64,000 bases of DNA. It comes from Eledone cirrhosa. Its lineage: Eukaryota. The stretch covers positions 160,022,001-160,086,000 of the forward strand of contig OZ024740.1 of NCBI GenBank assembly GCA_964016885.1, read 5' to 3'. The notes beneath the pieces are model-generated. The model searched no databases, was not told where the DNA came from, and worked only from the letters and a program-made list of their open reading frames with translations. Of this stretch, positions 3,910 through 15,510 are shown piece by piece. Every line of letters begins with the position of its first letter. Position 1 is the first letter of the stretch. Made by a program: the position numbers and the translations under genes.

Positions 3910-5090
3910 ATATATTACCATTATCTCTAATTTTAATTTTATAATAAATAGACGTACGGATTTATTTTCGCTCTGCTTGCAAAAATTCTATAGAACTTTC
4001 CATAAAGTATACAGCTAATATCTCAATACCTAATTAGTTTAAAATCTTCTCAAACGCTTTTATATCTTTTACAAATATACCCATCTCTCTACCTTATTTC
4101 AGTATATTATATTATACAATTTACTCATTCTATGTCATTAGCTGTCCCCTATTTTTCTTCTTTTTTATCCTTTTTACTTTCTTCCTTTTTCTTTTTTAAT
4201 TTCTAATCTTTAATCTGTAACTTTTACTACTCAATTACTTCTTAATTCATATTATTACTCACTATAGCATTTTCCTTATATTCTTGGCCATACAAACTAT
4301 ATTTTTAATATATACTAATATTACCATTAGTAAATTTTGTAAACATATATATATATTTTTTTTGACGTTATATTTTTTCCTTCCTTAAATTTTCTCCTTT
4401 CTTCTCTCCTTCCATGCTCATATTAAACCTATTATTTACTTTTTCATATTACAATACATAAAAACAAACTTAAACCCTAACTAATTCCTCTAAGTTCATA
4501 ATTCATTTAATCTCTTCTTCATTCACCTTATATCCTTAATATTTTTATTTTAATAATACATATTAGTAAATTCCTTTTCGCGCATATTATTAAACCCTTC
4601 AATATATAAACCTTAAATAAATACTATTCTTAATTCCTTTTTCTTTAATCATAAACATCACCATTCATAAACCTCATTAACTTTTAATTTCAAAATTTTT
4701 TTTTAATTATGTATTATCTTACAACGGTTTTTTAAATTTTCTCTGTGAGACAGTGTTTCTCAGTATGTCTCAGTGTCTCTCTCATTTCTCCTCCTCTCTC
4801 ATCCTTCCTTCTTATACTCCTCCCCCGTCATCCTTTATTTTCTTTCTTCCTCTTCCTTACCTTTTCCTTCCCCTCTCCTCCTTTTTTCCCAATCTCATAT
4901 ATCCATCTTACTTTATTTTTCATATGTTGATTTAACATTTCACTGCTCGCAAGTATTTTTTAAGCTTCATATCATGTCTCCCTATTTTATCTGATGAGAA
5001 CGCAAATATTACCCCATGATGATATTTGTTTTTGAAATGCGCATAATAAAATACATGGAACTCTTGTAACCATCTTTTGATCTTATATTA
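3910..5090 (+). mobile_element. Penelope-like element 3' fragment (possible GIY-YIG C-terminal tip plus pLTR with hammerhead)
   Basis: Starts after a TA run. About 3911-4009 translates YITIISNFNFIINRRTDLFSLCLQKFYRTF..., resembling the LNxRxE..xCxH end of Neptune ORFs. Then a pyrimidine-rich UTR, the hammerhead at 4983-5053, and an end at (TA)n. Confidence 0.6.
4983..5053 (+). ncRNA. Minimal type-I hammerhead ribozyme (HHR-A)
   Basis: TATTTTAT|CTGATGA|stem II gaacgcaaatatta...tgatatttgttttt|GAAA|T-GCGC-A|TA|ATAAAATA. Perfect 8-bp stem I, intact core, 1-bp stem III with palindromic loop, AUA cleavage triplet. Confidence 0.85.
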
Positions 5091-5639
5091 TATATATATA
5101 TATATATATATATATATATATATATATATATATATATATGATGATGATGGATGTATATATATATATTCCCACTCATCTGGATTAGGGTGGTTTTAATAGT
5201 AATTTTTAAAATTTTCTTTCACTCTTACTATACATATATAGCAGACATTCATCAAACTGACTTATTGTAGATATATTGCTTATGAGGCACATAAACAAAT
5301 GTCACTGCTGTTTTTTTATGAATGAAGTTTGAGGTAACTCGCATGCATACATACATGCCGACACACACAGATTTATGGTGGTTTAAATTCTTACCAAATC
5401 ATTCTTGTTAGTCTCATAAAAAGTTTGCAAATCCATTAAATTCTTTAGTAATAATCTTTGTTTTATCTTCCGTTTTTATATATAAGCTCTGTGAAATTAT
5501 AACACTACTGTGATTGGAAATTTACCGATTGGATTGAACAATCTTGTGGACAATATATTCATATGAAGCTATAAAATTCCTTAGACTTTATATGTTTTAC
5601 TTATCAACTTAGTTAAATTTATATATATATATATATATA

Positions 5640-5925
5640 CCATCATCATCATCACCGTTTTATGTCTGTTCTTCCACACTAGCATGGGTTAGACAGGTTG
5701 TCTTGTTGTGGGCAGTGTCTGGTTGGCTGACCTTGTCTTGCACATACGGGAACTGATTCTGGCTTGATTGCTACAGCTGGATGCCCTTCCTAACACCAAC
5801 CTCATTTACAGTGAGTGCTGGGTGCTTTTTTTCCGTGGCGCCTACACGTCCACTTTACAGTGTGGGCTGGGTGCTTTTTTGCCGTGGCACCTCCATGACC
5901 ACTTTGCAGTGGGAGGGGGTGGGGT
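5640..5925 (-). mobile_element. RTE LINE 3' UTR fragment
   Basis: Shares ttggtgttaggaagggcatccagctgtag...aacccatgctagtgtggaagaac...(GAT)n with the RTE copies at 24551 and 30638. Confidence 0.85.
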
Positions 5926-5994
5926 CATATATATATATTTGTATAGTTGTGTGTGTGCAATTGTGTGTGTGTGTAATGTACTTATAGCAGATTC

Positions 5995-6140
5995 TGCAGT
6001 TTCCATCTACCAAATTCCATTCACAAAGCATTGGTCAAACCGATGGTGTAGTAGAAGACACTTGACCAATGTGTCACTATGTGTAACTGAACCAAGATCA
6101 ACTTGGATGTGAAGTAAACTTTTTAAGAATGCAGTTATGC
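5995..6140 (-). mobile_element. CORE-type tRNA SINE fragment (octopus OR-like family)
   Basis: Minus strand reads caagtgtcttctactacacc...gaccaatgctttgtgaatggaatttggtagatggaaactg. Related copies at about 20590-20740(-), 33715-33860(+), 35650-35730(-) and 42210-42350(-). Confidence 0.6.
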
Positions 6141-6477
6141 CTATGCGTATGTACTTTTGCTAATCAAATTTCTCAAATGTACGTCTGCCAAATTTGCCTA
6201 GCAGAAATTTTATGAATATGTGAAGAAGCAATAACAGATTCTGTTATCTCTTTACCAGCTGTGACATGATAACTCAACTCCAACTCATATTGATTCATAA
6301 ATATTCAAATTTTCCAATATTGCCCAATTAGCTTGCCAAGGTCTATGACCCAAATCTGAATGACGATGTTTAACCCTTTCAAATTGTTTTAGATAAGGCT
6401 AGAAAAATATATTCTATTTTGATTTGAAAATGGGTCTAATAAAATATAATAGACATAATATAAGAGCTAATATATAT

Positions 6478-7137
6478 ATCATCATCATCATCACCATCAC
6501 CATTTTATGTTAATCTTTCCACACTAGCATGGGTTAGACAGGTTCTCCTTTTGTGGGCAATGCCAGGTCAGGTGATCATTTCTTTCTCATACAAGACTGA
6601 TTTAGGCTCAGTTTCTACAGCTGTATCCCTTCCTAACACCAACCTCATTTACAGTAAGTACTGGGTGCTTTTTTTACTGTAGCACCTACATGACCACTTT
6701 ACAGTGTCGACTAGGTGTTTTTTGTCATGAAACCTACACAACCACTTCACAGTGGTAGCGGTGTGGGCGCATATAGTCTATATGTTTCAGCTTCGGCTTG
6801 TACCCATGGGAACTCGGGTCTTCTGTATTACTGCGTAATGCCAGAGGTTTCGGTCCTGTGTCATTTCCTTTGAGAAGTGCAACTGGGCAACGTCAGTTTT
6901 TATCACCTCATTCCAGGTCTTTTGGGGTCTCCCCACTCCAAGACTCCCATCGAATTTTAATGCTCTGCACCTTTTTAAACAGCTGTCATCCTTCATATAT
7001 ATCACATGTCCATACCAGCACAATCTCCTCTCCTGCACACACCATTTGATTCCTCTTATGCTTAGTCCCTCTCTTAATATGTTTATGCATTGCCGGTCAT
7101 GTATATTACTATTCCACATCCATTGAAGCATGCAAGA
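6478..7137 (-). mobile_element. 5'-truncated RTE LINE (ORF C-terminus plus 3' UTR)
   Basis: ORF 6787-7131 has ERRLCWYGHV...GRPQKTW...DRNLW, typical of the RTE C-terminus; 3' tail ends in (GAT)n then TA. Confidence 0.9.
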
Positions 7138-7233
7138 TTAATATATCATCATCATCATCATCTTCGTTTAACGTCCATTTTCCACGTTAGCAGGGGTTAG
7201 ATGGTATATATATATATATATATATATATATAT

Positions 7234-13899: not shown

Positions 13900-13908
13900 T
13901 ATAATATA

Positions 13909-14086
13909 TGGGCGGTGAATTGGCAGTATCGGTAGAGAGTCGGACACCATGCTTCTCAGCATACACTCTGAGTTCAAATCCCACCGAGGTTAACTTTACC
14001 TTTCATCCTTACAGAGTCGATAAGATAAAGTACCAGTAATGCACTGGGATAATTGTTGGCCTTGTGCTAAAAGTAGAAACAATTAT
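13909..14086 (+). mobile_element. Nin/Deu-type tRNA SINE, near full length
   Basis: A-box-like tggcagtatcgg, B-box gagttcaaatcc, core cctttcatccttacagagtcgataa, 3' gtagaaacaatt. An inverted partial copy lies at 14311-14375. Confidence 0.8.
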
Positions 14087-14664
14087 ATAATATTATATAT
14101 AATATTATATATAATATTATATATAATATTATATATAATATTATATATAATATATATGTATATATATATATATATATAATATTATATATATATATAATAT
14201 TATATATATATATATATAATATTATATATATATAATATTATATATATATATAATATTATATAATATATTATATATTATATAATATTATATAATATTATAC
14301 AATATATATATAATTGTTTCTACTTTAGGCACAAGGCCAGCAATTACCCCAGTGCATTACTGGTACTTTATTTTAAAACTACAATATACACACTACACTG
14401 GCTTAGTTCTGATCTAGCTGCCAGAACAGCTGGAGCTCAGCTGTCGGGGGTCCTGACTCTTTTCCTATTTCACACTCTTAAGGTATTATGTATTGAGTAC
14501 TCTGGTGTGTTATGGTCCAACTGGTATCTTATTGCACTATATATATATATAAACATACATATATATGAATATATATATCATTATATCATATTCATCATCA
14601 TCATCATTTAACATCTATCTTCCACGCTAGCATGGGTTTATGAAATATATATATTACTATGTAT

Positions 14665-15035
14665 ATCATCAACATCATCATCATCAACGTTTAACGTCCG
14701 TGTTCCACGCTTGCATGGGTTTGGACGGGGGTAGTCCCACTTGAGGCAAGAGTGATTGTCTTGCTCGCATAGGACTGTCTGGCAGGTTTTCTACAGTTGG
14801 ATGCCCTTCCTAACACCAACCACATTTACAGTGTGGGTCTGGGAGGTTTTTACCATGTTGCCTACACGGCCACATTACAGCGTGGACTGTGTGTTTTTTT
14901 GTCGTGACACCTACACGATCTCATTTGTTTCGGCCTGGATGGCGCGGCACCAACATAACTTTACATAGAACGGGGTGGTGTGGATGGGGTGGGGGTGGTG
15001 GTGGTGGGACGGGGTGTATTTTGTTAGAGATGCCT
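14665..15035 (-). mobile_element. RTE 3' UTR, second subfamily
   Basis: Same subfamily as 31528-31950(-) and 63237-63478(+): gcctacacggccacattacagcgtggactg; (GAT)n tail. Confidence 0.8.
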
Positions 15036-15107
15036 ATATATATATATATATATATAGTAATAATAATAATTATTATTATTATTTTAATAAATATATATAT
15101 ATATATA

Positions 15108-15290
15108 TAATTGTTTCTACATTTGGCACAAGGCCAGCAATTACCCAGTACATTACTAGTACTTTATTTTATCAATCCCGTAAGGATGAAAGGCAAAGTT
15201 AACCTCGGCGGGATTTGAACTCAACCCGTAAAGGGACGTAACTATGCTAGAAAGCATGGCGTCCAACCCTCTACTGATACTGCCAAATCA
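15108..15290 (-). mobile_element. Nin/Deu-type tRNA SINE
   Basis: Reverse complement of the family consensus; uninterrupted relative of the 12041-12242 copy. Confidence 0.82.
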
Positions 15291-15439
15291 ATATATAATA
15301 TAATATATATGTATATATAATATGATTTATATATATATATAGTGTGTGTGTGCGTATATACACATATATTTATATGTATATACATATATATATATATATA
15401 TATAATATAAGATCAAAAGATGGTTAAAGGAGTTCAATA

Positions 15440-15510
15440 TATTTTATTATACGCATTTCAAAAACAAACATCATCAAATAATAATATTTGTGTTTTCATC
15501 AGATAAAATA
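15440..15510 (-). ncRNA. Minimal hammerhead (HHR-A', inverted relative of HHR-A)
   Basis: Minus strand: TATTTTAT|CTGATGA|aaacacaaatatta...tgatgtttgttttt|GAAA|T-GCGT-A|TA|ATAAAATA. Flanks (about 15405-15575) are homologous to about 4925-5090. Confidence 0.82.

Follow-up and report, generated by a model that had tools for sequence, protein, structure and literature searches.

The window analyzed here is a stretch of 64,000 nucleotides from Eledone cirrhosa (contig OZ024740.1, positions 160,022,001 to 160,086,000), in which eight hammerhead ribozyme motifs lie within 10.5 kb. We hold with high confidence that these are type-I hammerhead motifs in the 3' pseudo-long terminal repeats (pLTRs) of five families of Penelope-like elements (PLEs) of the Hydra clade, likely left by some seven insertions into (TA)n, independent of each other and 5'-truncated. 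The families, here designated A to E, are new families of Hydra-clade PLEs with the usual hammerheads, and the cluster is of a described kind. A first-pass annotation of the sequence had reported eight minimal motifs from five families and taken them for PLE or retrozyme-like termini. All eight motifs were found where it had placed them and its five families stand; of the two sources that it proposed, the PLEs were retained and can be sharpened to the Hydra clade, and the retrozymes were given up for the reasons set out below.

Hammerhead motifs and their parent elements

All eight motifs lie close to the 3' ends of dispersed repeats, each of which terminates in (TA)n. Inside the window, endonuclease codons are kept directly upstream of motifs A1, E and C1, those upstream of A1 matching the end of the family A endonuclease, and the motifs of families B and D lie downstream of Hydra-type open reading frames (ORFs) in other copies (loci L250, L252 and L253 for B, L247 and L248 for D). 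Copies with a direct pLTR-ORF-pLTR arrangement were found for family E (L242) and family C (L064), the arrangement being inverted for family C inside the window, and two 3' end positions were seen for families A, B, C and E. A single ORF with reverse transcriptase (RT) followed by GIY-YIG is present in L061 and L064 (family C), L242 (E), L247 (D) and L250 (B-like); for family A only the linker and endonuclease are shown, and the copies in the window are truncated. Other family C copies extend the broken ORF into an RT with RWK, DKT and YRDD motifs, and RWK together with DKT is present in L061, L070 and L065 (family C) and in L156, L158 and L242 (family E). The CxCX5C linker occurs in copies of all five families, as do CxxC and CxH around the E and N residues of the endonuclease. 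By eye, the IVY and YIG strands are not separated by a CxxC, an observation relevant to, but not decisive for, the absence of the endonuclease CCHH motif that marks the Hydra clade. The proteins match by eye the Hydra alignment of Craig et al. 2021 (PMC8557442). That paper defines the Hydra clade by RWK, DKT, CxCX5C, CxxC/CxH around a C-terminal GIY-YIG domain and (TA)n insertion, and its supplement includes an Octopus bimaculoides Hydra family (Hydra-1_Obim) with a hammerhead and (TA)n insertion. Among the results of a literature search on octopus hammerhead ribozymes, only Craig et al. was relevant.

A strict type-I descriptor was used that demands an exact CUGANGA core, a stem II of at least 2 bp, GAAA-N-loop-N'-UH and a stem I of at least 4 bp. 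Between positions 4901 and 15600 it recovers five of the eight motifs (A1, D, B1, C2 and A2). Motif C1 passes once stem II is relaxed to 1 bp, B2 fails because of a 2-nt loss at stem I, and E fails because of its core letter and a bulged stem I. A comparison with shuffled sequence had been proposed in the first-pass annotation; 150 local dinucleotide shuffles of the same interval gave a mean of 0.013 matches and a maximum of 1 against the five observed, and there are no matches in the remaining 53.3 kb of the window. Calling the motifs minimal is correct for helix III; it is not for the remainder, as 26–90 nt lie between the core and GAAA in seven of the eight and helix II is mostly long. The palindromic loops reported previously (GCGC, ATAT and AATT) were seen again, and the family D loop, ATTT, is non-palindromic. 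Rfam covariance models returned no hammerhead family among the 150 matches listed of 203 at E<=5, and those listed were only microsatellite-driven miRNA-family noise; the Rfam hammerhead models may not cover the PLE variants. Outside the cluster, at 62430–62560 on the minus strand, lies a weaker hammerhead-like motif with an intact core, GAAA and a near-palindromic helix III that fails the strict descriptor.

The same kinds of repeat were sought across the genome. One family B core pattern has 11,754 exact matches, with 0 in the reversed control, and a first look for the family C endonuclease gave 55,993 loose candidates, of which 150 were scored. In addition, 80 evenly spaced 10-kb windows (800 kb) were sampled with a slightly wider descriptor, which also returns five motifs in the cluster. 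The sample contained 76 matches, of which 66 have (TA)4 or longer within 400 nt downstream, compared with 26% of random positions.

The elements resemble the published Hydra clade (PMC8557442) in having a C-terminal endonuclease (EN+) with RWK, DKT and the linker, a hammerhead in sense orientation close to the 3' end, a 5'-truncated copy in inverted orientation and a tail. They differ in that five families are found within 10.5 kb and 24 hammerhead families within 800 kb, in the 50–90-nt helix-II domains of families C and D, and in motif E, which has A at core position 4 (A4) whereas the supplementary-table cores of that paper, among those examined, are all U4. With the PLE hammerheads of Cervera and de la Pena 2014 (PMC4209133) the motifs share type I, a 1–2-bp stem III, a palindromic loop and a U3-A8 covariant, as well as a large number of variable families in each genome, single dispersed motifs that come from truncated PLEs, and opposite-strand pairs 100–700 bp apart. 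Unlike those, the motifs here keep loop III; counts there reach ~9,000 per genome, and U4A was not found in the available parts of that paper. According to published work, motifs of this kind are poor at cleaving by themselves and do so better as dimers (PMC4209133, PMC7229834). For the anole PLE, the hammerhead is reported to depend on the protein of the element and not to be required for insertion in vitro (Frangieh et al., PMC11167929), and Craig et al. call the function of PLE hammerheads unclear.

Several points weigh against our assignment. The Hydra-clade membership is putative, being based on motifs and the by-eye alignment match; families A, B and D, whose recovered copies stop short of the N-termini, showed neither RWK nor DKT, and Pfam and PDB sequence searches gave no match for the Hydra protein L061, a 576-residue family C ORF. 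A Pfam search with the endonuclease remnant of the window gave no GIY-YIG match and one weak, unrelated match below the cut-off. Self-cleavage after the NUH triplet is predicted from sequence. In monomer folding only B2 beats all 200 shuffles, and the folds of the other seven motifs are no better than shuffles (z −1.7 to +1.0), an unremarkable energy that is expected with AT-rich stems and a 2-bp helix III. Covariation among genomic copies, a point raised in the first-pass annotation, was found, with both sides changed in six of nine helix-II pairs among 16 B-like copies and none in helices I and III, and it supports selection on the fold in the parent lineages; it was counted on hand-picked related copies, so no probability attaches to it. 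Finally, at the junction of D and B1 different families stand head-to-head without (TA)n, a geometry seen in one of nine sampled different-family pairs.

Core position 4 in family E

The motif at 8017 had previously been described as having a mutated core. The non-canonical letter is present, and it is not damage private to this copy, since A at position 4 is family-wide. In the motif E subfamily, position 4 is A in 45 exact matches and U in 1, and the reading of E as a damaged copy was rejected on these counts. A near-full-length family E copy (L242) has A4 in both pLTRs, and three sets of contigs from a single sample, of unrecorded kind, list no other letter for position 8023. A4 is ancestral to the motif E subfamily.

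The wider E superfamily was collected with a pattern that leaves seven core letters free. It gave 178 matches, the first 100 of which were tallied by hand, as copies and not as events. Position 4 is U in 34 of these, A in 32, C in 31 and G in 3; G5, A6 and A9 are conserved in 95, 97 and 99, respectively, and the pairing of positions 3 and 8 is C-G in 68 and U-A in 14. A sister subfamily of E carries the compensatory U3-A8 core (e.g. at contig coordinates C1:130973583 and C2:300956799). In family C, the first 100 of 177 matches have U in 58, C in 40 and G in 2 at position 4, the window copies having U, and family B has U4 in 99 of its first 100. Behind these copy counts lie only a few changes at the level of subfamilies. 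The 800-kb sample contains no A4 match and only single C4 or G4 copies, so these variants are a small minority genome-wide.

We infer that the core changed in the order U to C to A. An endonuclease tree separates the U4 group (88/100) but not C4 from A4, and the pLTR tree needs six changes and has unsettled bootstraps. Some U4 copies may be products of CpG decay of C4; L161/L285 sits with the C4/A4 group. The natural core variants of Perreault et al. 2011 (PMC3088659) also show U3-A8 covariation, and U4C there lowers activity but supports viroid infection; they differ in that U4A is not named in the available parts of that paper and in that the variants here are common to whole transposon subfamilies. 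U4A was likewise not found as a natural variant in the literature searched or in PMC11014351, figures and bioRxiv supplements being outside this coverage.

Two explanations of the A4 core have to be weighed. The first, to which we give close to an even chance, is that this Hydra-PLE lineage kept transposing and diversifying after the change at U4 with the remainder of the motif constrained, either as a working U4A hammerhead that is assisted by dimerization or by protein, or because the fold has a job other than cutting. Between two A4 sub-lineages of 18 and 5 copies, 22 of 99 flank sites differ compared with 1 of 22 motif sites not forced by the search pattern (binomial p=0.029, from a single comparison of small groups), and the single motif change perfects the helix-III palindrome. 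The C4, main A4 and second A4 groups all retain a self-complementary helix III. The second explanation is that the U4A ribozyme is dead and that the family drifted briefly after the loss, with the fold no longer constrained. The sub-lineage comparison argues against this, and we place it somewhat below even, for it can draw on the low activity of all single CUGA-turn mutants in a type-III hammerhead scan (PMC9901934), on the insertion in vitro of ribozyme-dead anole PLE mutants (PMC11167929), on the small size of the superfamily relative to family B, and on a stem I that is weakened alongside the core (with 4 bp where position 4 is U, and a bulge in the groups with C4 or A4). The U4, C4, A4 and U3-A8 subfamilies provide a ready-made natural series, and the presence of core variants in subfamilies that multiplied makes the need of PLE hammerhead cutting for transposition directly testable.

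Formation of the cluster and its density in the genome

The motifs of families A, B and C are nested in the order A-B-C-C-B-A, and an origin of this symmetry in a single event was rejected on copy identities. A1 and A2 are 84% identical, as are B1 and B2, whereas A1, A2 and B1 have relatives of 97–99% identity elsewhere, so these are separate insertions; the best relative of B2 among the fetched loci has 89%. About seven events are likely (A1, E, D, B1, C, B2 and A2), with C1 and C2 likely the two arms of one insertion, in which a copy running from 10876 to 8555 abuts its own inverted 3' end at 10889–11507. PMC8557442 draws the same arrangement for PLEs. Adjacent opposite-strand motifs in the 80 sampled windows are head-to-head in all 12 same-family pairs and tail-to-tail in eight of the nine different-family pairs. 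We infer that a single event gives rise to an inverted pair and that one (TA)n tract is entered by different elements, coming from both strands.

In the mechanism that we propose, the GIY-YIG endonuclease would cut (TA)n and prime reverse transcription close to the RNA's 3' end, and 5' truncation would keep the hammerhead, which lies 30–230 nt from that end. Head-to-head pairs would come from an inverted second copy. Any (TA)n left over would draw in later insertions and so produce tail-to-tail neighbors of different families. A tendency of PLEs to insert beside earlier copies is noted in a review (PMC6765202). At 8290–8345 the stubs of D and B are joined head-to-head through a ~9-nt piece of B in inverted orientation, and two different element RNAs possibly primed here at one break.

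It is very unlikely that the motifs belong instead to non-LTR retrozymes, which are short tandem non-coding units making circular RNAs. Retrozymes share with them type I, a 1-bp stem III, a palindromic tetraloop and very high counts (Cervera and de la Pena 2020, PMC7229834), a derivation of retrozymes from PLE pLTRs has been proposed (10.64898/2026.07.22.740005), and other parts of this genome hold tandem arrays of hammerhead units (L204, L207 and L219). At this locus, however, single or inverted ends of ORF-bearing elements are found in place of short tandem non-coding units: none of the eight motifs lies in a short tandem array, no family is repeated on one strand, and each of the five is linked to ORF-bearing PLEs, with ORF remnants upstream. 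The retrozyme part of the first-pass annotation is thus largely refuted here. The tandem arrays themselves (L207:5000-7017, L219:7301-9239, L204:6569-7935 and L192:5268-6068) consist of 466–528-bp units, each with an intact type-I hammerhead, that are 95–99% identical and in some cases have an inverted arm; they are retrozyme-like or tandem pLTRs.

The rarity of the pile-up implied by the first-pass annotation was not upheld. While 45 of the 80 sampled windows have no match, three equal or exceed the five strict matches of the cluster, and another five strict matches, from three other families, lie 10–20 kb upstream of the window (L255, contig coordinates C1:160002001-160012000). The cluster is in the top ~4% of sampled windows, yet it is routine for the genome. 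The mean is 0.95 motifs per 10 kb (bootstrap 0.65–1.3), which extrapolates to roughly 280,000 intact motifs (195,000–390,000) in the 3.0-Gb genome. For comparison, 126,247 type-I hammerhead motifs are given for the axolotl (PMC7229834), about half the load here, and ~9,000 minimal hammerheads for Xenopus tropicalis (PMC4209133), a rough comparison as descriptors differ between studies. The sampled matches fall into 24 hammerhead families, most with only putative parents; helix III is self-complementary in 19 of these with G-U pairs allowed, and a few singletons are probably chance. Families per sampled window are overdispersed (p=0.003), with four families, the number also counted here, in three of the 80, and Hydra-like ORF pieces occur in 13. 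About 54% of our own window is covered by repeats common to the fetched loci. With roughly one intact motif in every 10 kb, Hydra-type PLEs and elements related to them make up a major class of repeats here that has been overlooked by Rfam and Pfam, and many host transcripts would hold latent cleavage sites and inverted repeats. The significance is carried by this genome-wide load and by the position-4 series rather than by the cluster.

A transcript reading through the locus had been supposed to carry several self-cleavage sites. This idea is weak, as none of the families is present twice on one strand and a homodimer is therefore unavailable in cis. What is left of it are some cross-family helix-III pairings, namely A1/E (8 of 8 pairs, −5.6 kcal/mol) and E/B1 (8 of 8, −3.2 kcal/mol) on the plus strand and C1/D (7 of 8, −3.2 kcal/mol) on the minus strand, through which cis cleavage by cross-family dimers would be possible on paper. 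Together with the density of the cluster, these pairings could be cited for a selected, locus-specific RNA-processing device, with a read-through transcript cut at several sites, possibly by cross-family dimers. We consider this highly improbable in view of the ordinary private damage in the copies (stem I of B2, stem II of C1, the loop deletion of C2), the recurrence of similar clusters in the sample and in L255, and the long antisense partners nearby for six of the eight motifs, with predicted duplexes of −120, −174 and −743 kcal/mol inside the same 10.5 kb. Nor was a host gene domain found in 65 ORF pieces of the window, chosen from 108 non-repeat candidates together with four others; only RT domains of long interspersed elements (LINEs) were above the cut-off, and short exons could escape such a scan. 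Given the lack of a same-family pair on one strand, the antisense partners, and dimers that are only cross-family and on paper, the motifs at this locus are most likely passengers of PLE insertion. The ribozyme would act in the RNA of the parent element, either dimerized by way of the palindromic helix III or helped by the element's protein, as the literature suggests.

Chance matches in AT-rich, repeat-rich DNA, for which the AT-only stem I of families A and B and the non-significant monomer folding of seven motifs could be cited, can be given practically no weight, as the observed count was reached in none of the local shuffles, the 76 sampled matches compare with 0–3 in each of ten shuffles of 800 kb (mean 1.5) and 0 in the reversed sequence, and there is family-wide conservation as well as covariation.

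Features of the cluster and other repeats of the window

Table 1. Positions of the elements and hammerhead motifs in the window; cuts are predictions.
Feature	Position	Strand	Description
Family A copy 1	3915..5086	+	5'-truncated Hydra PLE; last ~30 endonuclease codons, pyrimidine-rich 3' untranslated region (UTR), pLTR; (TA)n on both sides
Motif A1	4983..5053	+	Core start 4991; type I with 8-bp stem I; helix III AUGCGCAU; predicted cut after 5045
Family E copy	7237..8110	+	Last ~46 endonuclease codons (with CxH), 3' UTR, pLTR; (TA)n on both sides
Motif E	8017..8058	+	Core C-A-G-A-C-G-A (U4A) at 8022-8028; 4-bp GC stem II; predicted cut after 8052
Family D stub	8125..8307	-	pLTR only; tail-to-tail with E across TA tract ~8112-8122
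Motif D	8164..8293	-	Core start 8285; 9-bp stem II with long insert, helix III ACAUUUGU; predicted cut 8177
Family B copy 1	8318..8490	+	pLTR stub, then (TA)n; 99% identical to copies elsewhere and therefore young
Motif B1	8385..8446	+	Core start 8393; helix III AUAUAUAU; predicted cut after 8438
Family C main copy	8555..10876	-	5'-truncated Hydra PLE; RT-thumb/linker/GIY-YIG remnant, 3' UTR, pLTR, 160-nt tail (8555-8714)
Broken family C ORF remnant	9850..10876	-	In-frame stops; CxCX5C linker, IVY...YIG endonuclease, CxxC, CxH region; without RT core
Motif C1	8773..8884	-	Core start 8877; helix III ACAAUUGU; stem II base mismatched in this copy; predicted cut 8780
Inverted family C 3' end	10889..11507	+	5'-truncated; abuts truncation point of main copy head-to-head; likely same insertion
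Motif C2	11368..11449	+	Core start 11375; loop II shortened by a 30-nt deletion; predicted cut after 11442
Family B copy 2	12750..12871	-	84% identical to B1, separate insertion
Motif B2	12783..12843	-	Core start 12835; stem I damaged; predicted cut 12791
Family A copy 2	15409..15572	-	84% identical to A1, 98% to copy elsewhere
Motif A2	15440..15510	-	Core start 15502; predicted cut 15448
Family A 3' tail	15600..15690	+	Head-to-head partner of A2, then (TA)n

Among the other repeats of the window, a very abundant repeat of ~140–300 nt that resembles a short interspersed element (SINE) occurs at 11650–12380, 13900–14375 and 15060–15290, in inverted pairs and also in (TA)n, and includes a 114-nt perfect-spacing palindrome at 12153–12380. 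Beside it, four telomere-type TTAGGG repeats lie in a TA-rich array at 12069–12092. Decayed LINE copies with RT and apurinic/apyrimidinic (AP) endonuclease domains are found at 25276–26683 on the minus strand and 59145–61926 on the plus strand, and an isolated family C 3' tail adjoins (TA)n at 61829–61925. The region 54290–56330 is ~2 kb of nearly pure (TA)n-type repeat with a GC content of 6.6%, in which no hammerhead insertion was detected.

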